IMG/VR virus record: IMGVR_UViG_3300045988_023867
DNA: 64,000 nucleotides
Source of the DNA: a virus
Strand: one strand, 5' to 3'
Shown here piece after piece: positions 853 through 55,400 of this stretch. Position 1 is the stretch's first letter. Each line of letters opens with the position of its first letter. Position numbers and translations under genes: made by a program. The notes under the pieces are model-generated. The model did no database searches. It was given only the letters and a program-made list of their open reading frames with translations, and was not told the origin of the DNA.

Positions 853-878
853 TTCAACTGTGAGCCTTAAAATAAGTC
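853..878 (+). promoter_or_regulatory. Conserved upstream motif TTCAACTGTGAGCCTTAAAATAAGTC (candidate promoter), 24 nt before the ATG at 902; a TATATAAT box follows
   Basis: Near-identical to the site at 16161-16186. The same GAGCCTTAAAAT core recurs upstream of three - strand genes. Confidence 0.5.
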
Positions 879-901
879 GAATTATATAATATTAAATAAT
901 T

Positions 902-1459
902 ATGGATGGAGTTGCTAAACGTGAACTTACAGAAGTTGAAATGATTCTTGGTAAAGGAATGTTATACGATAGTTCTGGATTAACTGAATTGGTTAATATG
1001 TATTATCTTCGTTATGGAATTATAGTAGAAGTTGTTTGGTATCCTAACTTAAAGAAATGGTTGCCTAATGTTAGAACCATAGCTTATACTCCTAAAGAAG
1101 TTGGAAATAAAAAACTTGTAAAGAATATTAGAGCTATTAGTGTTTTATATAAATCTTATTTTACAGAATATTTTAGCGATGCTTTACAAGTAGCTTTAAA
1201 TATCGCTGAATTATATGTAGTAAAAAGGTTTATCTATTGGAATGATTCATATATACTTAGTCTTATTAAATCTAATTCTGTTTATGAAGATATAATAGGT
1301 TTATTGGATAAAGTTGATAATTATGATATATATAAAGGTTTATATGATAGAGTTTTTGACGAAATCAATAAAGATTATATTACTGGTAGTATTTTATATT
1401 GTTTAACCAATCATATCAAAGAACATGGCTGGGAAAAGACCTATAATGAGATATTCTGA
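902..1459 (+). CDS. Hypothetical protein
   Basis: 185-aa ORF, preceded by the conserved GTGAGCCTTAAAAT motif at 860-873. Confidence 0.5.
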   Translation: MDGVAKRELTEVEMILGKGMLYDSSGLTELVNMYYLRYGIIVEVVWYPNLKKWLPNVRTIAYTPKEVGNKKLVKNIRAISVLYKSYFTEYFSDALQVALNIAELYVVKRFIYWNDSYILSLIKSNSVYEDIIGLLDKVDNYDIYKGLYDRVFDEINKDYITGSILYCLTNHIKEHGWEKTYNEIF

Positions 1460-1982
1460 TAATGTCAATAGTGTTCATGTATATGATGTTGTTAGAATTA
1501 AGCGAGGTTATTTTAAAGATAAACTTGCTATTTGTGTTTGGGTAGATTTTGCTAAACGAGAACTAAAACTTAAAGTTATTGATAATGGTATTGATATTAC
1601 TCTTCATAAGAATAGTGTTGATTTCTGTTATCATAATACTAAGACTGCTGCTAAACAATGGTTTGAAGTTATAGAACATAACTGTGCTAAGAATGCAAAA
1701 AATTGGTCGGATATTAAATATATCAAAGAACATTGGAATGATTTGTTAGCTAAGAATAGTTATACTGCTAGAGCTATTGCTAAAATTGCTGAAGTTCATA
1801 GAAGAAATGATAATGACTATTTAGAATGGCTTGAATATTATAGTAAACCTCTAGATATTATATTCGTTTATGATGACTTTGATTTTTGTTGTAAACTTAT
1901 AGAAGATTTATCATTATGTGAATCTAAACATTTTAGAGACGATATTATTAAAAAAATATATGATGTTATATGGAAACAGTGA
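1425..1982 (+). CDS. Hypothetical protein
   Basis: 185-aa ORF overlapping the previous gene by 35 nt. Confidence 0.5.
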   Translation: MAGKRPIMRYSDNVNSVHVYDVVRIKRGYFKDKLAICVWVDFAKRELKLKVIDNGIDITLHKNSVDFCYHNTKTAAKQWFEVIEHNCAKNAKNWSDIKYIKEHWNDLLAKNSYTARAIAKIAEVHRRNDNDYLEWLEYYSKPLDIIFVYDDFDFCCKLIEDLSLCESKHFRDDIIKKIYDVIWKQ

Positions 1983-2227
1983 TTTGGGTTATAGTTCTTC
2001 TTATTGGATTGTTGATTGTCGATGTTATTGTGCTAAAACAACGTGTAAGTAAATTACAAGAACAACTTAATGAAGCTCTAAAGAATCAAGTTAATCTTAG
2101 ACAACAGGTTCTTAATCTTGCTGATAATGTTCTTAAAAGTGCTGAACATATAAAGACTTTAACTGATAATGTTAAGAGAATTGTTGATGTGGTTCATGAA
2201 CATATTAATATTAGTGACGATAAATGA
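1970..2227 (+). CDS. Hypothetical small protein, N-terminal TM helix plus coiled coil
   Basis: The 85-aa ORF opens with a hydrophobic stretch VIWVIVLLIGLLIVDVIVL, followed by a heptad-like Q/L/N-rich segment. Confidence 0.4.
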   Translation: METVIWVIVLLIGLLIVDVIVLKQRVSKLQEQLNEALKNQVNLRQQVLNLADNVLKSAEHIKTLTDNVKRIVDVVHEHINISDDK

Positions 2228-2247
2228 GTCGGTATAGATTATATTCA

Positions 2248-2296
2248 TGTCCATCCTCTACGGGGGGCGGGAGGAACGAAGTTCCGACCTTTGGCT
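2248..2296 (+). repeat. GC-rich element, extended form: core CATCCTCTACGGGGGG, then GCGGGAGG, then hairpin GGAAC-GAA-GTTCC, then CGACC
   Basis: Intergenic, directly after the stop of ORF 1970-2227. Shares its core with at least 15 other sites. Confidence 0.85.
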
Positions 2297-2512
2297 TAAT
2301 AATTTAAATAGATATTATTATGACAGATATTATATTTTTTACTATATGTTTATTATTAATTGTAGCTATTCATATTATAGAAGAACTACATCTTATTAAA
2401 TTTATAACTCTTAATAGAGCTATTATTGCTGATTGTGTTATAGTTATTATATACTTACTGATATTTACTTTTATGATGTGAATTTATTAATTTTTTAAAT
2501 GTTATGTAAAAT

Positions 2513-2836
2513 ATGGGAAAATATGATGAAGTAACAGTAGTTAGAGAATTGTGTAAAAATCCAGCTGTAACTATCAACGATAAAGTGATTAGTGTTATTA
2601 AAGATACTAATCTTATTGGTAACAGTTTTTGGGGAAGAATTGACTTTCTTACTAAATACTGTGGTTATACACTTATACAAGTGGATTTGGACGAACAACG
2701 AGCTGCTAAGATTGCTGAACAAGAAGCAAGAAAAGCCGCTAAAGCTGCTGCTAGAGCTGAAAAACGTAAGAGTAAAGTAGATATTATCAGCTCTGTTAAA
2801 TCTAGTCTTTCTAAGAATAAATTTAATAGAAAATAA
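2513..2836 (+). CDS. Hypothetical protein with Lys/Ala-rich basic C-terminus
   Basis: 107-aa ORF. Overlapping alternative frames 2495-2722(-), 2592-2780(+) and 2665-2919(-) are judged spurious. Confidence 0.45.
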   Translation: MGKYDEVTVVRELCKNPAVTINDKVISVIKDTNLIGNSFWGRIDFLTKYCGYTLIQVDLDEQRAAKIAEQEARKAAKAAARAEKRKSKVDIISSVKSSLSKNKFNRK

Positions 2837-2842
2837 TATGTT

Positions 2843-3316
2843 ATGCCTACGTTTAAAGTGTCTTTTGGTTCAAGTGCTAAATCTAAAAGACAAAGAGTAA
2901 GTAGCAAATATGTTGTCATAGAGACTAAATGCGATGGTGAAATTATAATTGATAAACAAGGAGTATATAGAGTAAAGTATAAAGGACAAATATATCCTAT
3001 TACTACTGAATCTTATGAAACTAAACACAAAAGGGTTATATATGCTAGATGGTTAGATAAATATGGTCATAGAATTAAAATAATTCGTGATAAAGATAGT
3101 CGTAAAGCTACTAACATTAAATTCTATTGTGCTATTGCTCCTGGTTTATTAGTTCGTGGTAAGATTGTTAAAACAGCTTTTAGTCCTATTATGTTCCACG
3201 TAGTTATGTGTTATAATATAGCAGACGTTGAAGGTATGGCTTTATCTCTTCGTGATTGGAGAGAATATGAAGAAAAAGTTAAGAATGGAGAACTTGATAT
3301 TGAAAACGAACTATGA
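2843..3316 (+). CDS. Hypothetical protein
   Basis: 157-aa ORF. Its stop overlaps the helicase start in an ATGA arrangement. Confidence 0.5.
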   Translation: MPTFKVSFGSSAKSKRQRVSSKYVVIETKCDGEIIIDKQGVYRVKYKGQIYPITTESYETKHKRVIYARWLDKYGHRIKIIRDKDSRKATNIKFYCAIAPGLLVRGKIVKTAFSPIMFHVVMCYNIADVEGMALSLRDWREYEEKVKNGELDIENEL

Positions 3317-4767
3317 ATGTATATGGTGAACCTAAACAAGATAATGTTACGTTTACCAAAGACCAAGCAAATGCAGTTGATGATTTAATTGGATTTATAG
3401 CTGCTAAATGGGATGATAAGAATTATATTCATGCTCTTGTCGGAGCTGGCGGAGTTGGAAAGACTTTTGTTATTAAGTATGTTATACAGAATTGTAAATT
3501 CAGTTCTAGTGTAATTGTCTGTGCTGCTCCAACACATAAAGCTTGTAGAGTTCTTAGTAAAGCTATTAACGGAAAAGCGGTTGAAACTATTCAATCTACT
3601 TTTGGTTTCAGACTTGATGTAGATATTGAAAACTTTGACCCTGAGAATCCAGCTTTTAATCCTATTGGTAAAGTAAAACTATTAGAGAAAGAAGTTAGAC
3701 TTCTTATTATAGATGAAGCTTCTATGCTCAATTCTAAACTAGTGAATTACATTAACAATTTCTGTCGCAAACGACAAATAAAAGTTATCTACGTTGGTGA
3801 TGGAGCACAATTACCGCCTGTTAATGAGAAAACTAGTAGAGCATTTACTATTGCTACTAAGACTAATGTATTAAAAGAAGTTGTGAGACAAGGAGATAAT
3901 AATCCTATCACATATCTTCTTGAACTACTTCGGTCTGATATTGCTAATAAACGTTATGATATGCTTTCTTATATAAGTAATCCTAAACATAAAAGTGCTT
4001 ATAATGAATTTGGATGTGGATATACTGTTTGTAGTCCTTCTGAATTTGATTATCATATAGAACAAGCATTTACTGATGAAGAATATTCTAGGAATGTAAA
4101 TAAGTATAAAGTTATTGCATATACTAATGCTAAAGTTACAACTTGGAATAATTATATTCGTAAAGCTATTGTTAAAGGAGCTGAGAAAAGTATTATTACT
4201 AGAAATGACTTAATAATGTCATATTCTACTATTGTTGATGATTTTAATGATACTATTATACAGAATAGTGATGAATATATTATATATGATATAGCTGATT
4301 TTCAAGACCCTATTCATGATTTCAAATGTTTTATGGTTAAATTTCAAGCTATTAATGGAGGTAAGATTACACAACCTCTATGTATTATTGACCATAATGA
4401 TAAATTCACTATTCAATCTTATTTTAATAAACTTAATAATCTAATTAATGATGCTAAATCTGCTACAAGTGTTACTAGAGCTGGTAAATGGAAAGAGTAT
4501 TTCAAATTTAAACGGAAATATCTATTAGCTAATAATATACTTAATCCTTATGGTAAAGTACTTTTTAGTAGAGATATTGATTACGGATTTGCTATAACTT
4601 CTCATAGAGCTCAAGGTTCGACTTATAATACAGTTTTCGTAGATGTTAATGATATGGTATATGATAAGTATGGACATCCTTATACTAATCAAGATGAACT
4701 TCTACGTAGATTGTATGTTGCTTGCAGTAGACCATCAACAGAATTATTCTTGTGCTATGGAAGATAA
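3313..4767 (+). CDS. SF1 DNA helicase, Dda/RecD-like
   Basis: Walker A is GAGGVGKT and Walker B is LLIIDEASML. Motif III is YVGDGAQLPPV, and the C-terminal helicase motif is ITSHRAQGSTYNTVFVD. Confidence 0.75.
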   Translation: MNVYGEPKQDNVTFTKDQANAVDDLIGFIAAKWDDKNYIHALVGAGGVGKTFVIKYVIQNCKFSSSVIVCAAPTHKACRVLSKAINGKAVETIQSTFGFRLDVDIENFDPENPAFNPIGKVKLLEKEVRLLIIDEASMLNSKLVNYINNFCRKRQIKVIYVGDGAQLPPVNEKTSRAFTIATKTNVLKEVVRQGDNNPITYLLELLRSDIANKRYDMLSYISNPKHKSAYNEFGCGYTVCSPSEFDYHIEQAFTDEEYSRNVNKYKVIAYTNAKVTTWNNYIRKAIVKGAEKSIITRNDLIMSYSTIVDDFNDTIIQNSDEYIIYDIADFQDPIHDFKCFMVKFQAINGGKITQPLCIIDHNDKFTIQSYFNKLNNLINDAKSATSVTRAGKWKEYFKFKRKYLLANNILNPYGKVLFSRDIDYGFAITSHRAQGSTYNTVFVDVNDMVYDKYGHPYTNQDELLRRLYVACSRPSTELFLCYGR

Positions 4768-5065
4768 AGATAATAAAGCTCGTAAATTCGCTATTAAATA
4801 TAAAGGTAAATCTTGCGAATTTATAAGACCAAATGATAATAGAGAAAAAGGACGTGTTGTAGGATATAATACGAGAAATGGTCTTATTATTGTTAGAGTT
4901 CATAAAAATTTTGGATGGCGTAGAATAGATGAGCCGGAAGATATTTTTGTTTATACAAGATTTAATCTAGATAAATATTTGTTCTATTATGTACATCCTG
5001 ATAACATTATTATAAATGAACAAAACGTGCGAAAATTGTCCAGCAAGACTTCTAAACGAAAATGA
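4757..5065 (+). CDS. Hypothetical protein
   Basis: Internal ATG of track ORF 4643-5065, lying just past the helicase stop. 103 aa. Confidence 0.3.
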   Translation: MEDKDNKARKFAIKYKGKSCEFIRPNDNREKGRVVGYNTRNGLIIVRVHKNFGWRRIDEPEDIFVYTRFNLDKYLFYYVHPDNIIINEQNVRKLSSKTSKRK

Positions 5066-5510
5066 AGTTATATCTAATAATATAGGTAATGTTTATTCTA
5101 AAGTTTTATACGTGTTTCCACGTTATGATGAAGAAGCAATCAAGGACTTAAAAGAAATATATAGTCTTGCTACTGGAAGAAACTTTGAAGAAGAATGTTA
5201 TCTTACCTATGCTGTTAGATGTAATACTAGTTCTAAATATAATTGTTGGGATGATGCGGTTGTAAAGTGCAGTCATTTATTCTTTAAAGATTGGATTAAA
5301 ACATCTTATGAACATACAATAGTGTTTGGAGATGCTTATAAACTTTTCTTTAGAGATAAACCTGATTTTACTCATCATAGAGTTAATATCTGTGGTATTA
5401 ATCGTACTATACATTTATATGGCTCTCTTGGAATAAAGCATTATAATGCTGATAAATATAAAGTATTAAAAGACTTACTTGTCAAAGAACTTAGTGCTTA
5501 TAATATATGA
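5016..5510 (+). CDS. Hypothetical Cys-rich protein, possibly a degenerate family-4 UDG-like fold
   Basis: N-terminal CENCP motif with further conserved Cys and His. Sits immediately upstream of the DNA polymerase. Any UDG resemblance is weak. Confidence 0.4.
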   Translation: MNKTCENCPARLLNENEVISNNIGNVYSKVLYVFPRYDEEAIKDLKEIYSLATGRNFEEECYLTYAVRCNTSSKYNCWDDAVVKCSHLFFKDWIKTSYEHTIVFGDAYKLFFRDKPDFTHHRVNICGINRTIHLYGSLGIKHYNADKYKVLKDLLVKELSAYNI

Positions 5511-5522
5511 AATATATAAGAA

Positions 5523-7880
5523 GTGATTGATTGTAGAGCTGCGGACGTTGAAGTACTTCCAAATTTTTATTCTATTACTTTTATTAGTCTTAATGATTAT
5601 CTGAAAGTATTTGCAGATTGTGTTAATGATAAAGGTAAACCTATACCATTAGTTCAAAAACTGACTGTTGCTGAAATTAAACGTAGACTTGATACTGTTA
5701 AGTGTGATGCGTTTTATATTACAGATAAAGACGATAGTCAATTATTGAGTTTAGTTGGTTATCTTAATGCGATGCGTAATAAAGGAATTAATGTTTATAC
5801 TTATAATGGACTTAGCTATGATAATCTTATGATAGCTGGGTTTCTTATGAATGTTAATTACTATGATAATACTAAGGACTTAATAAAGTATCTATATAAT
5901 CTTAGTAAAAAGATTATTTCTCTACAAGAAGATAAGGAACAACTATATAATGATTTTCAGATTAATACTGTTAAACGTTTTAAACTTCCTTATATTGGTA
6001 TTGATGTTATGCGAATATTCGCTCTTAATAAAGCTGGTGTTAGAATTGATAAAGATACAGGAGAACGAAAAGCTACTCCTAAAGGTCTTAAACAAACTTC
6101 TATAAATCTTCAATGGTTTGAATTACTAGAATATGAACTTCCTCCTATTTGTGACAAAGATGTAGAACTTTATTATGATAATCTATTATATAAAGGACTA
6201 CCTCCTGACAAAGTTAATAAACTTGTTGACAAGTGGGATAGATATATATTAGATGAATATATTCCACCTATGATGCATTATAATAAAAATGATGTATTTA
6301 TTGTATGTGAAATTGTTCGTCTTAATCCGGAAGAAATTAGGTCTAGATATTCTGTTAGTAGTGTATATAAAGTTGACCTTCTTAACAGTAGTCGTAGTAA
6401 TATGGCTGATAAACTGTTTGAGAAATTCTATTCAGAACGAAGCGGTCTACCACCTGAAAAATGGAAAGGTAAAAAGACTGAAAGAACTGCTATGAAACTT
6501 AGTCGTGTTATATTTGATAATATCGAATTTAAAACACCTCAACTTAAAAGTTTTCTTGATAGAATTAAAAAGAAAGTTCTTTATAGAGTTAATAAAGAAG
6601 AATTTAATGAGATTCTAACTATTGGAGATACTACTTATAGTATGGGAACTGGTGGGCTTCATAGTCAAGATATTCCTATGGAAATATGGAGTACTAGTGA
6701 TTATGGATGTAATGGTGTTATACCTTGTCCATCTCCTACGGGGGAACTTCAAAAAGCAGAACCGTTTACTTTAGTACATTGGGACATTAATTCAATGTAT
6801 CCGTCAATCATGAGTTCTTATTGGATATATCCAGAACATATGATTAAATCGGTATTTGTAGGATTGATAACGTGGATGAAAGATACACGAGTTACTGTTA
6901 AACATAGTTTAGAAGAAATTATAGATGGAGTTCCTAGAGAAGTTCTAGCGTTAGTGCTAAAGATTGTGATAAATTCTATATATGGTAAGCTTGGATTCGA
7001 AAAAGGAGATTTGTATGACAGATTAGCTGTATTGAAAGTAACGATAAATGGACAATTATTAATCTTAATGTTGATAGAGGAATTAGTACAGAACCATATC
7101 AAAGTTGTTAGTGCTAATACTGATGGTCTTATGGTTAAGATTAAAGATAGTCAATGGGACGTGTTTAACGAAATTGCAAGTAGATGGGAACAAAGGTCTA
7201 AGTTGAAGGCGGATGCCGACATCGTACATTGCTTGATAGCTAGGGACGTAAATTGCTATATAGCCCAATTCCGCACTAAGAAAGGTTTAAAGCTTGAATA
7301 TAAAGGAGCTTTAAATCCTCTTATGTATGCTGTTGACTTACAAAAAGGTTATGATATGCCTATTGTTGCACAAGCAGTTAGTAACTATTTTCTTGAACAT
7401 AAACCTGTAATGGAAACATTACGTAATGCTACTAATATTCTTGACTTTTGTAAAACTCAAAACGTTGGACGACAATTTCATGTAGAACAAACGTTTGTTA
7501 ATAATCAGCAAGTTCAAAGAGTTGTATGTCAAAGATATGTTAGATTTTATGTATCTAATACAGGTTGTATAGTTGAGAAAGTTCATAACGATACTGCATC
7601 TCGTTCTCGTATGGCTGCTGGTTCAGTTGTTACTGTTATTAATACTCTTGATGATATGGATATTTCATTGCGGAACATAAATTATAAGTATTATTACGAA
7701 GAAGCGATGAAGATTATTAATCCTATTAAACTAGGAATTAGTCCTAAAGGTAAAGGACGTACTCGTATTAAGAAAGCCTATGGGCAATTTAATAGTCTTT
7801 TTGATGATTCCGCATTTGAAGATGTCGAAGAAGATAATATTGAATTAGATGATTATGAAGACACTGGATTTGATGTATGA
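5523..7880 (+). CDS. Family B DNA polymerase with 3'-5' proofreading exonuclease
   Basis: Exo I is DVEVL, Exo II is YNGLSYDNL, Exo III is YNKND. Pol motif A is DINSMYPSI, motif B is KIVINSIYGKLGF, and the motif C region is SANTDGL. GTG start. Carries an in-frame GC-rich element at 6723-6750. Confidence 0.85.
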   Translation: MIDCRAADVEVLPNFYSITFISLNDYLKVFADCVNDKGKPIPLVQKLTVAEIKRRLDTVKCDAFYITDKDDSQLLSLVGYLNAMRNKGINVYTYNGLSYDNLMIAGFLMNVNYYDNTKDLIKYLYNLSKKIISLQEDKEQLYNDFQINTVKRFKLPYIGIDVMRIFALNKAGVRIDKDTGERKATPKGLKQTSINLQWFELLEYELPPICDKDVELYYDNLLYKGLPPDKVNKLVDKWDRYILDEYIPPMMHYNKNDVFIVCEIVRLNPEEIRSRYSVSSVYKVDLLNSSRSNMADKLFEKFYSERSGLPPEKWKGKKTERTAMKLSRVIFDNIEFKTPQLKSFLDRIKKKVLYRVNKEEFNEILTIGDTTYSMGTGGLHSQDIPMEIWSTSDYGCNGVIPCPSPTGELQKAEPFTLVHWDINSMYPSIMSSYWIYPEHMIKSVFVGLITWMKDTRVTVKHSLEEIIDGVPREVLALVLKIVINSIYGKLGFEKGDLYDRLAVLKVTINGQLLILMLIEELVQNHIKVVSANTDGLMVKIKDSQWDVFNEIASRWEQRSKLKADADIVHCLIARDVNCYIAQFRTKKGLKLEYKGALNPLMYAVDLQKGYDMPIVAQAVSNYFLEHKPVMETLRNATNILDFCKTQNVGRQFHVEQTFVNNQQVQRVVCQRYVRFYVSNTGCIVEKVHNDTASRSRMAAGSVVTVINTLDDMDISLRNINYKYYYEEAMKIINPIKLGISPKGKGRTRIKKAYGQFNSLFDDSAFEDVEEDNIELDDYEDTGFDV
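6723..6750 (+). repeat. GC-rich element copy, forward orientation, inside the DNA polymerase gene
   Basis: TTGTCCATCTCCTACGGGGGAACTTC, translated in frame as CPSPTGELQ just upstream of Pol motif A. Confidence 0.85.
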
Positions 7881-9240: not shown

Positions 9241-9289
9241 TAAAAAGAGATTTATATTTGTGGTGTGAAAACAAACGGTCTTTGAATTA

Positions 9290-10243
9290 ATGGACGAGAA
9301 AGTAGAAGAACAAAAGAAAGAAGTTGCTACAAAAGAACATTCCGTTGTAGCAACAAGTAAAGATGTGAATACTCAACCTGTTGGAAATGTAGTTCATGCA
9401 TTGAATAGTATAAACCTTTTAGACCCAGCTCAATTAGAGAATGCTAAAGTGTTTATGTTACAGATAATGCGGAGTAAGAAAGGTGGTATTGCTAGTGTAG
9501 AAGATGGCTTAGCTGTTCTAATGAGAGCACAAGACCTTAATCTTCCATTTAGTACTTGCCTTGAACATATCCACGTTATAAATGGTAAAACAGGTATTGA
9601 TATTCACGTTATTAAATCGTTATTATCAAAGGCAGGACTAACATGGGAATGTACAAAAGATTATAGTCCTCTGTATGAATATACAGATGGTTTTAACGTT
9701 TATGTTGAAGATAAACTTCCTGACTATTGTATTAAATGCAATAATCGTAAAGAAGCAGAGAAGAGACAAGCAGAGAATAAAGATGATGATGTAGTTTATG
9801 TATATCCTACTCTTTATTTTAAAGATTTTAATGGCAATATATATAAGAGTTATCAATGGAATAATAAACTCTCTATTGCTATGAATCCTGCTCATGCTCA
9901 AGAACTTGCTAAACAAGGTCTTGTCCCTGTTTATCGAATACCTAATCAACCTGTTGATTATGTAACCGAATACGATATTTGTCGTGTAGTTCGTGGTAAG
10001 GAAGTTCATTCTATTGGTAGATTTAGTTTTAGTGAAGCTCAAGCTGCTGAAATGTTTGAGAAAGATACATATAAAAAGTATCCTCGAATACTTATCAGTC
10101 ATAGGGCATTTACTTATGCTGCTCGTGATATAGCTAGCGATATTCTATTTGGTGTGTATGAAACTACCGAACTCAAAATAGTTGCTGGCGCAGAGCTTAA
10201 CGATGCAGATATTATTGATATTGAAGCTCAAGAAGTAAAGTGA
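9290..10243 (+). CDS. Hypothetical protein, possibly a RecT-like single-strand annealing protein
   Basis: The segment GGIASVEDGLAVLMRAQDLNLPFSTCLEHIHVINGKTGI loosely resembles the RecT core. It sits beside the SSB-like gene. Weak call. Confidence 0.5.
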   Translation: MDEKVEEQKKEVATKEHSVVATSKDVNTQPVGNVVHALNSINLLDPAQLENAKVFMLQIMRSKKGGIASVEDGLAVLMRAQDLNLPFSTCLEHIHVINGKTGIDIHVIKSLLSKAGLTWECTKDYSPLYEYTDGFNVYVEDKLPDYCIKCNNRKEAEKRQAENKDDDVVYVYPTLYFKDFNGNIYKSYQWNNKLSIAMNPAHAQELAKQGLVPVYRIPNQPVDYVTEYDICRVVRGKEVHSIGRFSFSEAQAAEMFEKDTYKKYPRILISHRAFTYAARDIASDILFGVYETTELKIVAGAELNDADIIDIEAQEVK

Positions 10244-12249: not shown

Positions 12250-12292
12250 AAGGGTGAGATACTATATTTGGTGTCTCACCCTTTTTTTTATT
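12250..12292 (+). terminator. Intrinsic terminator (stem AGGGTGAGA/TCTCACCCT followed by TTTTTTTTA)
   Basis: Hairpin then T8 after the SSB-like gene. Confidence 0.8.
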
Positions 12293-16005: not shown

Positions 16006-16058
16006 GCGGAAGTAGTTGTAGATTTTGACGTCTATGACTGCTTCCGCTTTCTTGTTTT
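16006..16058 (+). terminator. Terminator-like hairpin (GCGGAAG...CTTCCGC followed by TTTCTTGTTTT)
   Basis: Lies 30 nt after ORF 15621-15977, inside a 240-bp non-coding region. Confidence 0.5.
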
Positions 16059-16160
16059 ATGCTGGCAAAATGTACTACGATGTGCCCGTAGATAGCATTC
16101 TTTTGCCCGTCATGGCATTCAACCCTATCAGCCAATGTCTTGTTAAGATTCTAATTTGCG

Positions 16161-16186
16161 TTCAATGGTGAGCCTTAAAATGAGTC
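16161..16186 (+). promoter_or_regulatory. Conserved upstream motif TTCAATGGTGAGCCTTAAAATGAGTC (candidate promoter) with downstream TATATAAT
   Basis: 24 of 26 positions identical to the 853-878 site. Lies 55 nt upstream of the first ATG of the kinase gene. Confidence 0.5.
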
Positions 16187-16240
16187 AAAAAATATATTAT
16201 TATATAATTTGGTATATTGTTATTATTGTTACATTTGCGA

Positions 16241-17050
16241 ATGCAATTAAACCTATTAGATATGATTAAAGATATTAAACCTATTATTGGTATAGCAGGT
16301 AAAGCTAAGTCTGGTAAAGATACTGTTGCTGGTATGATTGCATATATTATACGAGAAGGACTATTTAGAGCCGATTATAGGAATTGGAGTATACGTTTTG
16401 ATAAACCAGGAGTTACTAGAGAAATTGGCGCTATTATTCATTTTGCTGATTTTGTAAAAGATATTTGTTCTAGAGTATTTCTTATTAATAGAGAATATTT
16501 TGACAAAATTCTTTATAAAGAACAATTATGCTATCTTATGGATAATGGTAAGTTCGTTAAACTTAACGAAGTACCGAGCGATTATATAATTGCTAATCAT
16601 GCTATATTAAGTACTACTTCCATTGCTTCTCTACTTAAAGGTTATAACAATAAAGTTGCTATTAGCCTTAGAACTATGTTACAATATGTTGGAACAGAAC
16701 TTGGTAGAAATCAATTAGGAGACAATTGTTGGATTAATGCTACTATGTCTAATGCTGGTATAATACGTAATAGATTTGGATTTTGTACCATAGCTGACGT
16801 AAGATTTGCTAATGAATGTGACGCTATAAGAAAACAAAAAGGAGGATTTGTTATTGAAATTAAAAGACCTAATGACGACGAAATTAAACCTAAAGGTTCT
16901 GTTCATATTAGTGAATCTCTTGAAGGTATTAATCCAGATTTTGTTATTGATAATGATGGTAATAAGTTCAAGTTATTTCACCAAGTGTTGTCAGTATTAG
17001 ATAAGATAAATCAATCTTCTCATTCCCTACGGGGGAACAGCCCAAAGTAA
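16241..17050 (+). CDS. P-loop nucleotide kinase, dNMP-kinase-like
   Basis: Walker A is GIAGKAKSGKDT. The track ORF begins at a TTG at 16217; the first ATG is at 16241. The C-terminus is built from a GC-rich element, read as SLRGNSPK followed by the stop. Confidence 0.55.
   Translation: MQLNLLDMIKDIKPIIGIAGKAKSGKDTVAGMIAYIIREGLFRADYRNWSIRFDKPGVTREIGAIIHFADFVKDICSRVFLINREYFDKILYKEQLCYLMDNGKFVKLNEVPSDYIIANHAILSTTSIASLLKGYNNKVAISLRTMLQYVGTELGRNQLGDNCWINATMSNAGIIRNRFGFCTIADVRFANECDAIRKQKGGFVIEIKRPNDDEIKPKGSVHISESLEGINPDFVIDNDGNKFKLFHQVLSVLDKINQSSHSLRGNSPK
17015..17044 (+). repeat. GC-rich element copy, forward, forming the 3' end of the kinase gene
   Basis: TCTTCTCATTCCCTACGGGGGAACAGCCCA, read as SHSLRGNSPK followed by the stop. 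Confidence 0.85.
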
Positions 17051-23138: not shown

Positions 23139-23384
23139 ATGAAAGATAAATATTATGATGATTATAAAGATATGCATGATGATTATGACGAATATAATCC
23201 ACAAGAATATATAGGTCGTCAACCTAATCGTGAAGTACCTAATGAGCCTGAAGGTATTGGTTGTTTGCCAGGTTTTATTATAGGAATTGTTATATTCGTT
23301 CTATGTTGTGCTGCTTTTAGAGCTTGTGAACGAAGTATTAAAGACCCTAATTCTAGTCAATACGAATACTCATTTTTAGATTAA
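23139..23384 (+). CDS. Hypothetical membrane protein, acidic N-terminus plus one TM helix
   Basis: D/E/Y-rich N-terminus. The TM helix is LPGFIIGIVIFVLCCAAF. Confidence 0.4.
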   Translation: MKDKYYDDYKDMHDDYDEYNPQEYIGRQPNREVPNEPEGIGCLPGFIIGIVIFVLCCAAFRACERSIKDPNSSQYEYSFLD

Positions 23385-23386
23385 CT

Positions 23387-23623
23387 ATGAAAAAGAAATT
23401 ATTGTGGCTAGAAAGACTAATATGTGAATACTTAGGTCATAATAGAGTTTATATAGTTGAACCAAGAACTAGAGTTAAAGGTAAGTCTAAAGGACGTGTA
23501 GGAAATGCTGTTATTAGTTTTAAAAGAAAAGGCGGTAAAGGAGGAAGTGTAAGAGTTGTTGATGGTGGTTATTATGTTTGTGCTCGTTGTGGAAAGAAAT
23601 TGACAAATTGGGAACGATTATAA
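23387..23623 (+). CDS. Hypothetical basic protein with CxxC
   Basis: K/R/G-rich, with CARCGKK near the C-terminus. Last + strand gene before the convergent terminator. Confidence 0.4.
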   Translation: MKKKLLWLERLICEYLGHNRVYIVEPRTRVKGKSKGRVGNAVISFKRKGGKGGSVRVVDGGYYVCARCGKKLTNWERL

Positions 23624-23633
23624 GGCTCTCTGT
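23618..23633 (-). promoter_or_regulatory. Orphan copy of the motif, rc = CAGAGAGCCTTATAAT, at the convergent module boundary
   Basis: Shares the extended GAACGATT(A/T)TAAGGCTCTCTG with the 37998 site. No - strand ORF lies downstream. Confidence 0.3.
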
Positions 23634-23728
23634 TGGATTTTCTAGTCTGATTAATATAGTTGTTCAGTTCAATAAAGAAAACGGCAAGGCGAGCCGGAAA
23701 ACCGCCAAAAAGCAATAGTTTAGTAATA

Positions 23729-23790
23729 GAAAAGCCCGTAGGCTAGAAGGATGACTGATTCCTTACTAGTTCTACGGGCTTCTTTTTTAT
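23729..23790. terminator. Bidirectional terminator between the convergent modules (stem AAGCCCGTAG/CTACGGGCTT with T-runs on both sides)
   Basis: 10-bp stem with a 30-nt loop. CTTTTTTATT follows on +, and TTTTCTATT follows on -. Confidence 0.7.
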
Positions 23791-23807: not shown

Positions 23808-24386
23808 TTAATTATTGAACTTGCCAATAATATATTTTCTTAATTTAATTTCTCCTTTTTCATTCCTTTCAACTTTGACATTTCTATATTGTTTATTATA
23901 CATAGCAACAAATTTAATCATATTTCCTTTAAATAATCTATTATGATTTATAATATAAGTTGATTGAACATCTGTTATATCTAATAATGGTTCGTTACCA
24001 TTTTCTTTATAAGTAAGTTGCTTTAAAGCTTCTACTATTGTATCTTTGTTACAACATAAATCTCTAGCAGCATCTCCAATAGTGAATTTAACTATATTAC
24101 TATCGAACTCAATATGTTCCATTATATAATCAATTAAACAATGAGTATATTTTGTATAATAAACCCCTTTAACTTTAAAATAATTAAAATCTCTACAATA
24201 AAATCGTCTATCGCTAATGTTAGTATGAACATCTACTGTGTGATTAAGTACATCAATATCTACTACATTAGCATTAATTGTAGGTACAGGAAAACTACTA
24301 ATAGTAACTTTACTTCGTTCTTTTTCTTCTCGCTTAGTATCTTTCTTTGCAGATTCTTTAGCTGGTTTTAATATAAACTCTGGCAT
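23808..24386 (-). CDS. Hypothetical protein (last gene of the - strand module)
   Basis: 192-aa ORF. Confidence 0.5.
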   Translation of the reverse strand: MPEFILKPAKESAKKDTKREEKERSKVTISSFPVPTINANVVDIDVLNHTVDVHTNISDRRFYCRDFNYFKVKGVYYTKYTHCLIDYIMEHIEFDSNIVKFTIGDAARDLCCNKDTIVEALKQLTYKENGNEPLLDITDVQSTYIINHNRLFKGNMIKFVAMYNKQYRNVKVERNEKGEIKLRKYIIGKFNN

Positions 24387-24596
24387 ATCTTTATATGGTT
24401 ATTAGTTATTAGTTGAACAAATATACGAATAAGTCCGAACATATCGACTAATTTTAGTCTAAAGTATACGGAAATTTCCAAAAATTATACTTTTGTAATT
24501 ATCTGATTATCAATAAGTTAGAGTATAGCAGCAATTATCTTATATATACTATAAAAGTCTACGACCAGACTTATCATCCAATCATAGACCTTATAA

Positions 24597-37961: not shown

Positions 37962-37997
37962 ATAATTATCTTTATGAGAACGTCCGACAGATGAACG

Positions 37998-38013
37998 ATT
38001 TTAAGGCTCTCTG
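37998..38013 (-). promoter_or_regulatory. Conserved motif, rc = CAGAGAGCCTTAAAAT, about 37 nt upstream of the giant ORF start
   Basis: Lies in the 82-bp gap between the 1970-aa ORF and the giant ORF. Confidence 0.45.
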
Positions 38014-38043
38014 CCGAACTTTCTCGGTTAAGTCTTTACTCTT

Positions 38044-43956: not shown

Positions 43957-43957
43957 A

Positions 43958-46600: not shown

Positions 46601-46602
46601 TA

Positions 46603-49083: not shown

Positions 49084-49120
49084 AATTATATATTATTATA
49101 TGAAATAGACAAAACTAGCC

Positions 49121-49136
49121 ATTTTAAAGCTCTCTG
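49121..49136 (-). promoter_or_regulatory. Conserved motif variant, rc = CAGAGAGCTTTAAAAT, 38 nt upstream of the start of ORF 46603-49083, followed by TATATAAT
   Basis: Lies in the 139-bp gap upstream of the 826-aa gene. Confidence 0.4.
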
Positions 49137-49222
49137 TCAAACGATTATCAAAATCAATACTAATTATCACAACCTATATCAAAATTCAACAGCGAGTAAA
49201 TAAACATGGTCTACGTTAATGT

Positions 49223-49840
49223 TTACTTCCGTTTTTGTCCTCCACACGCCATTCGGCATACTGATTTACGACCACCATAACGTTTAATTGGTTGTAGAGT
49301 TGTAGGAAGATTTAAATCAGAATTAGCATTAATTCCATTAATAGGAATAGGTTTAGTAAGATTATCTTTACGTTGTTCAGCAATACGTTTAGCATTATGT
49401 TTTGCTAATCCTTTTCCTATCGTTTGTCCTATTACATTTCCAGTTTGTGCAATTTCTGGACTTTCAGTTACAGCACTAACTATATTAGCAGCTCCACTAA
49501 TAGCGCTACCGATAATTTCTCCTACTCCACCAATAGCTTTTTTATTTCTATTCTTATATTTTTTATTTTTAGCAATACCGCCATATCTCATATATTGTTC
49601 CATAAAATTATCTTGTATTTCTTCTTGACCTTCAAGTCCAGCATTAAGAGCTTCAATACTCTTATAGGTTTCTTCATTACGCTTAATTGCTTTTTGACGA
49701 GCAGCTTCTCGTCTAGCGGCTCTTTTTCTTTTACGCGCTCCTATAATTCCTCCAGCTATACTAGTAGCCGCTCCAATAATAGCGCCAATAAAAGCTTTTT
49801 TTCTAGGTTTATATTTATTATTTTTCATCATTAATGACAT
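49223..49840 (-). CDS. Hypothetical basic protein with glycine-zipper membrane segments
   Basis: GAIIGAATSIAGGIIGA and GGVGEIIGSAISGAANIV are GxxxG-type zippers flanked by R/K-rich stretches. The antisense ORF 49424-49834 is rejected. Confidence 0.55.
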   Translation of the reverse strand: MSLMMKNNKYKPRKKAFIGAIIGAATSIAGGIIGARKRKRAARREAARQKAIKRNEETYKSIEALNAGLEGQEEIQDNFMEQYMRYGGIAKNKKYKNRNKKAIGGVGEIIGSAISGAANIVSAVTESPEIAQTGNVIGQTIGKGLAKHNAKRIAEQRKDNLTKPIPINGINANSDLNLPTTLQPIKRYGGRKSVCRMACGGQKRK

Positions 49841-52800
49841 TCTATATTGTTTACGCTTATTCTTTTATCATTACTATAAAATATAAATCTTATAACAAAA
49901 TATTTACCAACCACAAGCGCATCATTAAGACTTTTTGTAGTTATAAATTTAGTATCAGGATGTAGTTTACCATTACCTCTAATTATAGGATTTTTGGTAT
50001 CTATGTTAGCAATCTTATTTCTAAACCAATTGAATATCCAACTTCCATATTTATAATAAGGATGTTTATAATCTTTCATTGTCTTCTTTGGAACACTAAT
50101 ATCTATATAATCACTATAACAGCAATTAGTATAAATAAGAAGTCTAAGCCCACTATAATTATCGTCAGTAGCTTTATTAACAGAATATGATATATAATTA
50201 AGTACTTTATCTATATTATCATTGTTAAATACAACATCAACAAAAGAACAAGGTTTTCCTTCAATAGTAAGTTCTGTTTTAAATATATTAATATTGTCAT
50301 CTATAATATTGGTATAATCTCCAAATTTATCTAAATTAAATTTATCAACAGAAGATTCTATAATTTGATTATTAATAAAATAAGAATTATTCTTAGTATT
50401 AAAGCAATCATCATACCAATAACTATGAGTACTTAACCAATATTTACCATTAAAACTATAACTTATAGCAAAATGTTTAGTTTCATTATCAATTTTAGCT
50501 TTACCTAAACATATCATTCTTTCATTACGCTCATCTATAGCAAAATTTATATCAACAATATCATGTTTAAATAAGTTCTTAAATCCAGGAGTAATTTCAT
50601 CAAGATTATTTTCATCAAATCTATAAAGTTTATGAGCGTCACTATCATAAAAAATATAACCATAATTGCTACAAACAAATTGATTAACTTTTTGAATACC
50701 AGCATATCCTCTAGTACTAGTAAACATTTCAACATAATCTATATCAAAAGCATCAGGAATTACTAATTGAACATCTTTATCTTCTGTTCTCATACTCGAA
50801 TCTCTATTGAATACAAACATAGAATGTTCGCAATGAGCAATAAGATAACCGCCAACTCCAATAATATTTATAATAGCTCCTTTATTTTCAGTTATAATTT
50901 TATATTGTTCCGGTCTAAATTTTCTCCATTTATTTTCTACGGACTCATTAGTTATAATATCACTACGACGAATAACTTTATCATAATAATCTATGAAATT
51001 AGCATAATAGTCTTTATCAAAATTAGAAATAAGTTTATCAGCATAATCATAAAAATTAGGTTTAAGTTCATATATATCATTAAGCATAGTATAATACACA
51101 TGAGTAACTAATTCTGTATATATATGAGCAGTATCAGAATCAGTACCTTTAAAACCATAATATTTAGATATAGGTTTAGATTTAATATTCTTAGCAAAAG
51201 TAGGATATAAAGAATAACTATTCATTCTTACTCCAACAGTAGGACAATGTAAAAACTTAGAAGTACTATAATCCTCTTTAGGGAAATCTTCTGTATATAC
51301 TCTTCCATCGTTTGTTTTAGCAGAAGGATGAACTTCATCATAATTAACTCCCCAATAGTTCATATCAAACACTTGATTACTTACCTTATAATAATCATAG
51401 TTATAATTATATCCTTCATAACCATATTCATATTTTTTATTAGGTTCATAATCTACATATTTAATATATCCAAGACTGATAAGTTCTTTATTCTTTCTTA
51501 GGTATATATTATCTACTATATTAAGTAATAATCCGAAAGTTAATTGTTTTTTCCATTGATTTATAGTATTATATAACCTAATAGCGTTAGTAGTATTTAC
51601 AGCTAAAATTCCTTGTCTACCTCTATTATTAGATAAATCATTAGGAGCATATACATTTATAGATTTTATAGAAGATATATAATTAGTTCCTACAGTACGA
51701 CTATTTCCTGTATCAACACTATAATAAGAATCATTAAATATATCGTTCCAATTAGTATTAAAATCTTCTTGTTTTTCTATAAATAATATATTTCCAGATA
51801 CTTTCTTTACTAAATCAAATTCGGGATAATAAAGTCTTACTTCACTAATATCTTGTTCATAACCGCCAGCATTAGCATTAAGTCCTCCTGTTAAAGGAGT
51901 TACTATACATTCGCCTGTAAGTATAGGTTCTGATTTTTCATAACTTATAAAATAACCTACAAACTCTTCGTACATAGGTATATTATCAAACACAAATTTA
52001 AATCCTTTATTATATTGCGTAGTAATATAATTGCCTAAAATGCTACCTCTAAATAGTTTATCTCCGTTAGTATTTTTGTATAAAGCAATACCATTATTGT
52101 TATATTCGGGAAATACATTACAAAATCTAACATCAGCCACATCATCAAATACTCTAACAACAGGATGAGCGTCAGTAGTATCTATTGTAGTATATTTAGT
52201 AAGCAATTCTGTATATCTTTTCTTTACATCAGCGATTTTAGTATCTTCATTAACTTCATAATTAAGTTCTATAGTAGTCTCATTATCATTAGCTGTTCCT
52301 AATTTAATAGTCTTATTATATGTCATATTATTAGATATACGAATACCATCTGTATAAGAACCGTTAGGATAAACATAATGTATAAATAAATTATAAACAG
52401 CATTATTAATAGCTTGTTTAGTAACATCTCCATAAAAATTTAATTCTTCTCCACCACCACTACTATCACTGACTTCATTTATAGGAGCATTATATACGGG
52501 GTATGTAACATCTATAGTAGGTTGTGTAGTATCTTTAGCATTTACTCTAATATTAAATTTTTCATCAGTATAAGGTAATAATATTTCTACACTCATTAAA
52601 TTATCTGCATCTATAACTTTTAATAAATAAGCGGCATAATTATCAGTATTATCAATTCTTATTGTTTTGTCTTTTACAAAACTTATATATAATTGTCCTA
52701 CTTGTCCTTCGTCAAAAACTGGGTCAGACCAACTTCCTGCACTAATTCTATAAGTAGAACCATCGTCTGTTTTTCTATCATAAGTATTATTAAACCAATC

Positions 52801-55185
52801 CTTAAAAGGAATCATTATAGCAAAATCTTTATCTACTTTTATAACATTATCTTCAGTTACTCTATTTCTAAAACCTACTACTTTAGGTTTTACATCAATA
52901 ATGCTAAATTTATCAGAAGAACCATGATGATAAATAGATAAATTATAAGAAAGATTAGGGTCAAAATCATTTTCATTCGGTTCTCTATCTTCCGTCCATT
53001 CATAACTAGTTCCAAAACTCTTATCAAAATCTTCTACTGTTTTATTATAATTAGGTATAGTAACAGGAAGTATACTAATAAGTTCGCCAACATTAAAAGT
53101 AAATTGTTCTCCACTAGTTGGTATAATAGTTACTTCATCGTCTATATAAGCATATTCTGTACCTTGACTATAACTTCCTTGATTAACAGCTGTAGCACAA
53201 AGTTGTAAACGTTTTAAACTACAATTATACATAACTCTTACAGAAGACCTTAAAGATGCGGCATTAGAATAAGAATCTAAATATATAGCGTCTTTATTAG
53301 TTGGTTCAGCAGCTCCATCTTTAAGTGTATATTGGTATTTATATTTTCTAGTAGAACCAGGATATTTAGCTTCTAAATATTTATCTATAAAGAAATTAGT
53401 ATAATAAAGGAACAAATAAGATTTTGATACATAATTATAATCAAGTCTATATCCATTTACAGAACCTGAAATACTAGATTCTACCAATCTAAATATTCCA
53501 TTATATACAGTTTTAATAGTACCTCCATATACATCGTTAAATTCTGTAGTAAGATATATACGTAAATTTTTAGCTACATCCGGATATTTATTAGCTTCAG
53601 TAAATTTAATATTAGGTTCACAAAACCATGATTGAGATACTTCATTGTCTCCTGGTTCAACTTTATAAAGTTCTTCTATAATAAAATCGTTTGAAGTATA
53701 TACTTTTCCGGCAAGTTTAAAATTATCTTTTCCTGAACTTCCATGACTATACGAAAATTTAGATATTATACCATTATCGCTATTTTGTACAATAAGATAA
53801 TAAGCATCACGGTATTCTTCAGTCACATAAGGTATTCCTTTTATTTCTTCATCAATATCATATAAAATAGAATTAAATATTATATTAATATCGAACATTA
53901 ATTGTCCTTTACCAAGAGTTCCTGTGGATACGGTATCATCGCTATAAAACCATTTAGTGACTTCTTTGTAACTTCCGTCACTTAAATATATTTTAGCTCT
54001 TAATTTAATTACATATTTAGAACCAAATAAAACTTCTGTTACTAATTGACTATCGCCTACAGGAGCATAAGTACTAGCTATACTACTTCGTTTATTAATA
54101 TTATTTCTTACTAATAAAGGTGATGGTTCGTTCTTTAAAGGAACTGCTCTTACTATTATATCACTAACATCTATTTTACTTACAACAGTATTAGGATTTT
54201 CTTCTTTATAATTAGCAATATATAATCTATTATTATAGTTACATAGAGTTTTTACATTATAAACATTAAAAAATGTACTAGTTAAATCGTCTAATGTAAA
54301 ATCTCCACTAGTATCAGTATTACTTATAGTAACTCTTTTATTTTTTATACCATAATCATTAGTATTAAATATTTTTATTTCGCTAGAAGTAGTATTAACT
54401 ATATATCCTATTTGATAATGAGTATAAGATAATGTCTTATCATTTATATCAATACCTAATATAATATTTTTACTTATTTTTTCAACATCATTATTAACAT
54501 TGTCCGTAATAGTATAATTACGAGGACTAAATCCTAATCCGTCTCCGTCATTAACATTGTAAACATATCGTTCTACTGTAATATTGTAAGAATCATCAAA
54601 TAATATAATAGGATAACCAATTTTATACCAAGCAGTATACTGTTCTCCTTTTTTAAATCTTATAAAAAAATTATATACTCCACGATACATATTTGCACCA
54701 TTAACAGTACTATAATTTATAAGATTAAATTGAGGAATTTCTGGATTAAGAGTATATTTATTATCTGATTCACCTAGTACATATTCAGGTTTACTAAGAT
54801 TTATAATTTTTAAAGGGACATCATGGTCAGTATTTAACTCTGTAATACTAATAATAAGTTCTTTATTTATATTATAAGTATATGCTCCTATAACATTACC
54901 ACCTTCCCATTTCCAATTAGTATTAACTTCTATATTTTCTTTAGAACTTTCTTTACATCTAAAAATTCTATTAAAACTAGTAAATATTATAAATTCATCA
55001 GAACAAGCTATATATCCTACAACTTTTTCATTAGGATTATCTAGTATAAAATACTTTTCAATAGAATTTTCGTTCAATACTCCATCATTAGTATTGTTGG
55101 CTACTATATTACTAGCGTGAGCTATATCTCCTGTATCTAAAAATTCTATATCAGTATCTATATTAAGTTTTTTGTTTATCTCCAT
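49831..55185 (-). CDS. Very large N/Y/T-rich protein (1784 aa), tail fibre or receptor-binding-like
   Basis: Composition typical of phage tail fibres and spikes. Preceded by the promoter-like motif at 55197-55212. Confidence 0.7.
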   Translation of the reverse strand: MEINKKLNIDTDIEFLDTGDIAHASNIVANNTNDGVLNENSIEKYFILDNPNEKVVGYIACSDEFIIFTSFNRIFRCKESSKENIEVNTNWKWEGGNVIGAYTYNINKELIISITELNTDHDVPLKIINLSKPEYVLGESDNKYTLNPEIPQFNLINYSTVNGANMYRGVYNFFIRFKKGEQYTAWYKIGYPIILFDDSYNITVERYVYNVNDGDGLGFSPRNYTITDNVNNDVEKISKNIILGIDINDKTLSYTHYQIGYIVNTTSSEIKIFNTNDYGIKNKRVTISNTDTSGDFTLDDLTSTFFNVYNVKTLCNYNNRLYIANYKEENPNTVVSKIDVSDIIVRAVPLKNEPSPLLVRNNINKRSSIASTYAPVGDSQLVTEVLFGSKYVIKLRAKIYLSDGSYKEVTKWFYSDDTVSTGTLGKGQLMFDINIIFNSILYDIDEEIKGIPYVTEEYRDAYYLIVQNSDNGIISKFSYSHGSSGKDNFKLAGKVYTSNDFIIEELYKVEPGDNEVSQSWFCEPNIKFTEANKYPDVAKNLRIYLTTEFNDVYGGTIKTVYNGIFRLVESSISGSVNGYRLDYNYVSKSYLFLYYTNFFIDKYLEAKYPGSTRKYKYQYTLKDGAAEPTNKDAIYLDSYSNAASLRSSVRVMYNCSLKRLQLCATAVNQGSYSQGTEYAYIDDEVTIIPTSGEQFTFNVGELISILPVTIPNYNKTVEDFDKSFGTSYEWTEDREPNENDFDPNLSYNLSIYHHGSSDKFSIIDVKPKVVGFRNRVTEDNVIKVDKDFAIMIPFKDWFNNTYDRKTDDGSTYRISAGSWSDPVFDEGQVGQLYISFVKDKTIRIDNTDNYAAYLLKVIDADNLMSVEILLPYTDEKFNIRVNAKDTTQPTIDVTYPVYNAPINEVSDSSGGGEELNFYGDVTKQAINNAVYNLFIHYVYPNGSYTDGIRISNNMTYNKTIKLGTANDNETTIELNYEVNEDTKIADVKKRYTELLTKYTTIDTTDAHPVVRVFDDVADVRFCNVFPEYNNNGIALYKNTNGDKLFRGSILGNYITTQYNKGFKFVFDNIPMYEEFVGYFISYEKSEPILTGECIVTPLTGGLNANAGGYEQDISEVRLYYPEFDLVKKVSGNILFIEKQEDFNTNWNDIFNDSYYSVDTGNSRTVGTNYISSIKSINVYAPNDLSNNRGRQGILAVNTTNAIRLYNTINQWKKQLTFGLLLNIVDNIYLRKNKELISLGYIKYVDYEPNKKYEYGYEGYNYNYDYYKVSNQVFDMNYWGVNYDEVHPSAKTNDGRVYTEDFPKEDYSTSKFLHCPTVGVRMNSYSLYPTFAKNIKSKPISKYYGFKGTDSDTAHIYTELVTHVYYTMLNDIYELKPNFYDYADKLISNFDKDYYANFIDYYDKVIRRSDIITNESVENKWRKFRPEQYKIITENKGAIINIIGVGGYLIAHCEHSMFVFNRDSSMRTEDKDVQLVIPDAFDIDYVEMFTSTRGYAGIQKVNQFVCSNYGYIFYDSDAHKLYRFDENNLDEITPGFKNLFKHDIVDINFAIDERNERMICLGKAKIDNETKHFAISYSFNGKYWLSTHSYWYDDCFNTKNNSYFINNQIIESSVDKFNLDKFGDYTNIIDDNINIFKTELTIEGKPCSFVDVVFNNDNIDKVLNYISYSVNKATDDNYSGLRLLIYTNCCYSDYIDISVPKKTMKDYKHPYYKYGSWIFNWFRNKIANIDTKNPIIRGNGKLHPDTKFITTKSLNDALVVGKYFVIRFIFYSNDKRISVNNIECH

Positions 55186-55196
55186 AACGATTGACT

Positions 55197-55212
55197 TATT
55201 TTAAGCCCTCAC
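55197..55212 (-). promoter_or_regulatory. Conserved motif variant, rc = TGTGAGGGCTTAAAATAAGTC, ending 12 nt before the ATG of ORF 49831-55185
   Basis: Matches the + strand sites, including the flanking TGTGAG and AAGTC. Confidence 0.45.
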
Positions 55213-55400
55213 AGGCGATTATTTTGACTTAATCTGATTAATTATATGATATGAAAATTATCTCTACGCAGAGGTCAGGAAAACCATATCTACGAGCCTC
55301 ATTTTCATCATTTCGGTTACTCGAATCCATTCTTACAGATAAGCCATAAATACCATTAACTGTAACAATATCTATTATATCTTCCATAACAACTTCTCAT

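Follow-up and report, generated by a model that had tools for sequence, protein, structure and literature searches.

The 64,000-nucleotide stretch of viral DNA analysed here (IMG/VR record IMGVR_UViG_3300045988_023867, called the window throughout) belongs to a crAss-like phage of the family Intestiviridae and carries six copies of a short motif, GAGCCTTAAAAT, all of them between genes. We propose that this motif represents a class of promoter specific to the Intestiviridae crAss-like phages, a reading to which we assign a probability of about one half. From the comparisons presented below we infer both that transcription initiates at the motif and what kind of factor reads it.

The repeated motif itself is confirmed. 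Allowing at most one mismatch, GAGCCTTAAAAT matches the window five times against 0.60 expected, and none of 100 shuffles gave five matches. These lie at 862-873 (site A) and 16170-16181 (site B) on the plus strand, and at 23617-23628 (site C), 37998-38009 (site D) and 49121-49132 (site E) on the minus strand, with the variants TATAAT at site C and GAGCTTT at site E. The sixth copy, site F at 55198-55210 on the minus strand, reads GAGGGCTTAAAAT and contains an insertion of one nucleotide (nt). Relaxing the search to two or three mismatches returned only extra matches that were scattered and unrelated, and a 42-nt profile (21 sites) recovers in the window the same six sites and none in coding DNA. 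The DNA not covered by open reading frames (ORFs) makes up 5.8% of the window and contains all six sites (P ~4e-8). The shuffle test and the intergenic statistics together rule out a chance origin of the motif.

A first-pass annotation of this DNA had listed six motif sites, and all of them exist, five as matches with at most one mismatch and the sixth with the inserted nucleotide. The starts it gave at 853 and 16161 are 6 nt too low (the 20-mers begin at 859 and 16167), the 20-mer it quoted for site B has to be replaced by the actual sequence, GGTGAGCCTTAAAATGAGTC, and site F likewise deviates from that 20-mer. Five sites had been placed upstream of a co-oriented start codon, in agreement with the measured gaps between core and start codon of 12-37 nt (A 28, B 35, D 36, E 37 and F 12 nt). 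The distance given for the kinase gene behind site B holds for the annotated start, 35 nt away, but not for the likelier ATG at 16262, which is 80 nt from the site. The octamer TATATAAT, described as trailing the motif, is indeed present at three of the six sites but is no member of the family: it is a common octamer (41 copies in the window against 30.5 expected) that is not conserved at related sites, and we rejected it as part of the motif. Intragenic copies had been named as one observation that would speak against a promoter; a genome-wide scan of the window and of two complete related genomes found none.

Alignment of the sites from the window, from crAssphage and from IMG/VR contigs, the latter retrieved by a pattern scan, reveals that GAGCCTTAAAAT is the 3' core of an intergenic module of ~110 nt. 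The module consists of blocks at fixed spacing, namely C(G/A)TAGA at about -90, TTTTGCC at about -70, TTGAATTTT at about -58, ATGATTAAT at -38 and cGT at -12, followed by GAGCCTTAAAAT at position 0 and, directly after it, (G/A)nGTCA. Information content peaks in the 12-mer and GTCA, contiguous over ~18 bp, and the upstream blocks are conserved weakly, far less than the core. The core is contiguous and strongly asymmetric, with an AT-rich heptamer (TTAAAAT). A degenerate inverted copy of it, GAGGGCAAAAGAAT, lies ~75 bp upstream; the module also aligns in part with itself in reverse complement (for instance crAssphage 5120-5041, E=3e-6), and its left edge, C(G/A)TAGAyATG, resembles the reverse complement of a second repeat, CYCTACGGGGS. 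We built nhmmer profiles, which are hidden Markov models (HMMs), for the core (42 nt) and for the full module (110 nt), and all profile results below refer to them.

Four sites in the window carry the full module. Site A (780-880, plus strand; full HMM E=4.9e-18, core E=5.4e-7) precedes ORF 902-1459 and the gp10 homologue (1425-1982). Site B (16082-16188, plus strand; full E=2.7e-16, core E=3.8e-7) is upstream of the gene for a deoxynucleoside monophosphate (dNMP) kinase, ORF 16217, the homologue of crAssphage gp26. This kinase probably starts at the in-frame ATG at 16262 and not at TTG 16217: the PHROG match begins at residue 19 of the annotated protein and the tblastn match to crAssphage gp26 at residue 36. 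Site E (49117-49221, minus strand; core GAGCTTTAAAAT; full E=4.8e-14, core E=3.4e-5) lies upstream of the 826-aa gp47 homologue (ORF 46603), and site F (55191-55298, minus strand; full E=1.4e-9) precedes the 1784-aa gp49 homologue (ORF 49831) by 12 nt; the weak core score of site F (E=0.024) is explained by its inserted nucleotide. Site D (37991-38026, minus strand; core E=1.8e-6) has the core only, the upstream blocks being absent and the full HMM aligning only at model positions 75-109; it stands 36 nt upstream of a 4454-aa homologue of the virion RNA polymerase (RNAP), crAssphage gp44. Site C (23612-23703, minus strand; core GAGCCTTATAAT; full E=5.6e-5, core E=3.5e-4) is a partial module.

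Terminator-like hairpins precede several modules. A hairpin of 18 pairs with a T-run (16006-16047, plus strand) stands 123 nt upstream of core B; another, GCCCGTAG...CTACGGGC followed by TTTTC (23734-23779, minus strand), separates the RepL-like gene from site C, and a third follows gp25 ahead of the crAssphage gp26 module. Many related sites show a G-rich stem end and a T-run ~100-115 nt upstream. The resulting order at site B and at crAssphage gp26 is terminator, module, gene, an arrangement that speaks for a promoter.

Conserved stretches of the window are ~74% identical in nucleotide sequence to Carjivirus communis, the prototypical crAssphage, and the two share a common gene order, in which ORFs 38044 and 43958 of the window correspond to gp45 and gp46; the RepL-like ORF 23808 corresponds to gp43 and is inverted relative to crAssphage. 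Protein identities between them range from ~28% to 66%, with the virion RNAP homologues (~31%) among the least conserved. The profiles match crAssphage at six places, two of them weak or degenerate: upstream of gp26, gp38, gp47 and gp10, weakly before gp56, and once antisense in the gap between the portal gene and gp75. The cultured phage ΦcrAss002, from another subfamily of the Intestiviridae, has three to four matches, upstream of gp26, gp11 and gp52, the fourth being a palindromic remnant in a hairpin between two RNAP genes. Over the window, crAssphage and ΦcrAss002 together, 16 of 16 matches are intergenic, and 13 of the 15 that have an orientation face the next gene.

Sites A, B and E occupy positions orthologous to those of the crAssphage modules at gp10, gp26 and gp47, although the flanking proteins are just 31-52% identical, and at the kinase and gp47 positions the core is invariant. 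The crAssphage gp10 copy keeps the upstream blocks but has, in place of the core, a sequence reverse-complementary to the left arm. The gene blocks headed by the motif are those for replication and for RNAP/cargo, plus the capsid module in ΦcrAss002.

Outside the Intestiviridae the signal disappears. Neither profile matched phi14:2 (best E 0.76) or ΦcrAss001, a member of the Steigviridae that also infects Bacteroides (best E 0.5). The 596 Gbp of species-representative bacterial genomes contain the exact 18-mer GAGCCTTAAAATGCGTCA seven times, five times in crAssphage contigs mis-binned into metagenome-assembled genomes (MAGs) and twice by chance, and none of the occurrences is on a Bacteroidales chromosome among the genomes scanned. 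Use of the motif by the host is therefore rejected. Its absence from ΦcrAss001, phi14:2 and Bacteroidales chromosomes suggests that the phages of this lineage encode the reader. Four loci of the collection scan (L014, L048, L064 and L104) were discarded as chance matches inside a coding gene of an unrelated tailed phage. Five further loci (L131-L135) are crAssphage contigs with the full module, filed under Mycoplasma, Clostridiales and Clostridia MAGs and an isolate assembly of Chitinophaga silvisoli, placements which are probably binning errors or contamination.

We compared the motif with known promoter types. The Bacteroidetes sigma-A promoter, with -33 TTTG and -7 TAnnTTTG elements, likewise stands upstream of genes in these genomes, but its sequence differs from the motif, which has no such pair of elements: TAnnTTTG is missing from the core and its flanks on either strand, and the one TTTG, inside the TTTTGCC block, has by inspection no -7 partner at a spacing of 19-21 bp. 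Boxes of the sigma-A type (TATATTTG or TACATTTG) are found elsewhere in the window, at 9253, 12263, 16230, 24418 and 58499, so that the motif constitutes a second class of site in the same genomes. One of them, TACATTTG at 16230-16237 on the plus strand, falls between core B and the kinase ATG at 16262, and crAssphage gp26 shows the same tandem of module and then TATATTTG. The RepL-like gene (23808-24386, minus strand) has a TATATTTG box of its own at 24418-24425.

The only experimental model for transcription in crAss-like phages is phi14:2, which belongs to another family. Its middle promoters (Drobysheva et al., bioRxiv 10.1101/2020.03.07.982082) are tripartite and located upstream of g070, g075, g108 and g110; the host RNAP transcribes its middle and late genes. 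Read from the genome, the mapped regions have the form TTGAC/TTTGCA ... TAnnTTTGTA, that is, the host sigma-A type TTGnnn...TAnnTTTGTA, which has no sequence in common with GAGCCTTAAAAT. These promoters of phi14:2, a beta-crAss phage, resemble the motif in being intergenic and sense-oriented and in the kinds of genes they precede (the RNAP block, the gene once labelled 'IHF', for integration host factor, and the portal-side gap); they differ in being transcribed by the host RNAP, and the motif profile matches nothing in phi14:2 or ΦcrAss001.

Other candidates were also dismissed. For sigma-54 (-24/-12) the spacing from GG to GC is 2 nt short and TGGC appears in few sites on inspection. For an extracytoplasmic function (ECF) type AAC...CGTC promoter the -35 candidate is unconserved and the conserved part would fall in the spacer. 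A leader peptide MILLPxxEF in the left part has a start codon in Carjivirus only. The motif contains no WATCAANNNNTTR consensus of an IHF site. Pfam CrAss_Ring_2 matches the window gene at 57752-58462 (minus strand; E=6.7e-54), whose homologues from crAssphage and ΦcrAss002 carry the label 'IHF subunit'; that label is outdated and the gene product is crAss tail ring protein 2.

A conserved RNA structure was not detected either. An Rfam search with the module returned nothing at gathering score, and RNAalifold gave an empty consensus on both strands for an alignment of 20 module sequences, which argues against a structured non-coding RNA or a conserved fold. Fold z-scores at five of the six sites (0.02, -0.95, 0.14, -0.27 and -1.16) are no better than shuffled, and only site D folds significantly, so a hairpin is not a feature of the family. 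There, the core lies in the loop of an interrupted stem of 16 positions (37976-38025, minus strand; for the coding strand -24.6 kcal/mol and z=-5.05, for the opposite strand -14.2 kcal/mol and z=-0.53), whose two G-U pairs turn Watson-Crick in a relative (locus L026). The hairpin at the Carjivirus kinase site is real, a stem of 10 bp surrounding the core with 95% of cells paired against 20-55% in slid controls, but its covariation is not significant, 333 of 500 shuffles being equally good. The motif is not an intrinsic terminator, given the lack of a significant hairpin at five of six sites and of a T-run after site D. A terminator-like hairpin at 12252-12281 on the plus strand, GGGTGAGATAC-TATATTTG-GTGTCTCACCC followed by T8, holds a sigma-A-type -7 box in its loop; it looks like a nested terminator and promoter, and provides a precedent for core D inside a hairpin.

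Based on these results, the best-supported reading remains that of a phage promoter distinct from Bacteroidetes sigma-A, as the first-pass annotation had suggested, although it overlooked the module, the orphan site and the coexisting sigma-A-type boxes. If this is so, GAGCCTTAAAAT and the adjoining nnGTCA would form the promoter core at the head of multi-gene blocks, often behind an intrinsic terminator. A phage-encoded reader, either the virion RNAP or a phage factor redirecting the host polymerase, would bind the asymmetric GAGCC segment; the AT-rich TTAAAAT would melt, and the RNA would begin close to the conserved (G/A)nGTCA, a few bases further on. The upstream blocks may act as accessory binding or bending sites.

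Promoters of phage-encoded RNAPs, such as those for the two two-barrel RNAPs of P23-45, offer the closest parallel: like the motif, they are contiguous over ~18 bp, nearly invariant and few per genome, lie between genes and share their orientation, do not resemble host promoters and are limited to one phage lineage. The same signature of a lineage-specific contiguous motif is found here, with 16 of 16 matches intergenic and 13 of 15 co-oriented. Unlike those promoters, the motif is known from sequence alone, has an extra ~100 nt of upstream conservation, and is invariant though the candidate polymerase has diverged to ~31% identity.

Whether the reader would be the virion RNAP is a separate matter. 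The crAss-type virion RNAP is a two-barrel enzyme resembling RNAi polymerases and is ejected with the DNA, and to our knowledge no promoter has been defined for the virion RNAP of any crAss-like phage. We consider it doubtful that the module is the promoter of this enzyme. It had been argued that the motif precedes genes of both modules and hence may be read by the phage's own RNAP; this conclusion does not follow, and the alternative offered at the time, a middle or late regulatory site, is equally open. Since the motif stands before replication, RNAP/cargo and capsid-module genes, it maps onto no single temporal class of phi14:2. Ten ORFs of the window, for the most part small and conserved, yielded no DNA-binding candidate in Pfam scans. 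Coliphage N4 likewise ejects a giant virion RNAP with its DNA and has promoters in hairpins, as core D does, but five of the six sites here lack a hairpin and the loop at D has 18 nt, not 3; with the short hairpin absent at five of six sites, an N4-type hairpin promoter is excluded.

Several observations weigh against a promoter. The ~100 nt of conserved sequence ahead of the core are long for a promoter. Site D and the Carjivirus kinase site both have the core in a hairpin loop on the sense strand, which suggests that the core itself is transcribed there. Site C is an orphan, located behind its terminator-like hairpin at the convergent junction of two gene modules, with no minus-strand ORF downstream, and it points antisense into the last two plus-strand ORFs (23387-23623 and 23139-23384). 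In all, two to three copies stand without a co-oriented gene (site C, the crAssphage copy at 86.2 kb and locus L007). Equivalents of site C are found just past the 3' end of an RNAP gene, facing the convergent module, in two other lineages, L006/L021 and L017/L092, the latter with a GC-rich inverted-repeat hairpin ~80 nt downstream of the orphan copy; a promoter at such a position would yield antisense or small RNAs. The portal-side gap complicates the picture further: its module is antisense and degenerate in crAssphage (L123/L124, 85943-86284), where a TATATTTG box serves gp75, and sense-oriented in ΦcrAss002 (L125, 9548-9918), a history that suggests inversion followed by promoter replacement. 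The invariance of the motif alongside virion RNAP homologues only ~31% identical is awkward for direct reading by that enzyme. In the literature searched we found no transcription start data for Intestiviridae phages, and no description of the motif in a crAss context. Finally, the early transcripts which the virion RNAP makes in phi14:2 have no common upstream motif (Drobysheva et al., bioRxiv 10.1101/2020.03.07.982082).

A transcribed core at the two hairpin sites would fit read-through from the upstream gene, and it would also fit an explanation which we hold to be unlikely overall, that the core is a signal in the transcribed leader. The promoter would then reside in the upstream blocks (TTGAAT...~16 nt...GATTAAT), with a start ~20 nt before GAGCC, and the signal, recognised in the nascent RNA or in the non-template strand, would render the polymerase processive or pause it before long operons, as boxA/nut or ops/JUMPStart elements do. 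Those elements are, like the motif, conserved orientation-specific 12-mers in the leaders of long operons; the likeness stops short of a convincing sequence match, an identified partner or a demonstrated upstream promoter here. The core is indeed oriented with transcription in 5' leaders, 12-150 nt before start codons; at site D it occurs without the upstream blocks, inside an operon and just before a 13-kb gene, and at crAssphage gp10 the upstream blocks occur without the core. Hairpins with G-U pairs around the core form on the sense strand only at site D and the Carjivirus kinase site, although they are missing at five of the six window sites and the covariation at the kinase hairpin is insignificant (333/500 shuffles). 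There is also a loose resemblance to boxA, whose consensus is GCTCTTTAACAA and whose Bacteroidetes form resembles the E. coli consensus, but the alignment, made by eye, needs insertions and deletions and misses CTCTTT, and the ops consensus GGCGGTAGnnTG is unmatched. No known promoter corresponds to the upstream blocks, the sigma-A type with its -33/-7 elements included, and no NusG-like or N-like phage protein was identified.

It is less probable still that the core is an operator, bound by a master regulator of the phage at many operon promoters in the way of the dispersed asymmetric C1 operators of P1. Such an operator would account for the small number of asymmetric, highly conserved sites that each genome has at the operon heads of all modules, for the tolerated orphan and antisense copies, and for the inverted core GAGGGCAAAAGAAT and the partial self-complementarity of the module; it would also suit the proposed phage-plasmid lifestyle, crAssphage being reported as a phage-plasmid and possessing RepL genes. 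The 13/15 orientation bias would be unexpected for a pure repressor site, however; no recognisable promoter stands in fixed register with the motif, and the small conserved ORFs scanned yielded no candidate repressor. We give the least weight to the module being an element that acts as RNA (a processing site, a stabiliser or a small structured RNA) or a selfish intergenic repeat resembling a miniature inverted-repeat transposable element. The intergenic, multi-copy occurrence with partial dyad symmetry, the likeness of the left edge to the GC-rich CYCTACGGGGS family and the opposite orientation of the portal-side copy in crAssphage and ΦcrAss002 are compatible with this, but neither an Rfam match nor a consensus fold on either strand was obtained, and orphans lie behind terminators or on an untranscribed strand, so that no RNA element would be produced from them. 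Orthologous positions in different genera, and an invariant core beside diverged flanks, favour a selected function over recent mobility.

Two further families of elements were seen alongside the motif. CYCTACGGGGS, extended to approximately TCTCTCCATCCTCTACGGGGGAAC, has 13 exact copies in the window against 0.00 expected, with positions at 2256, 8336, 13154, 14643, 17025, 22967, 23084, 30939, 35000, 39082, 41253, 47421, 47766 and 55784. Ten copies fall within long ORFs, in either orientation to the gene, and leave the reading frames intact; intergenic inverted pairs (22967/23084 in the window, many in crAssphage and one at the L017/L092 junction) look like bidirectional terminator hairpins. 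The non-coding region 172-503 upstream of site A contains three long plus-strand hairpins, at ~269-294, 321-348 and 454-485, with a conserved apical GTCTGTGAAGAT or GCTTGTGAAAGT readable as YYT-GTGA-ARR with a GNRA tetraloop. Four hairpins of the same family stand upstream of crAssphage gp09 and one after the crAssphage portal gene. These hairpins could serve as terminators or stabilisers, or belong to an abundant early non-coding RNA such as has been reported for phi14:2.

CrAssphage and its relatives are the most abundant human gut phages, and the motif gives them a short, invariant and lineage-specific signal at the heads of operons. Its presence in the culturable ΦcrAss002 makes the reader of crAssphage promoters, and the timing of their use, amenable to direct experiment. 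The motif can serve annotators as a marker of operon starts, and is a candidate signal for phage-dependent expression in Bacteroides. If the module were the promoter of the virion RNAP, the enzyme ejected with the DNA, or new copies of it, would drive the operons for replication and virion proteins in the Intestiviridae.

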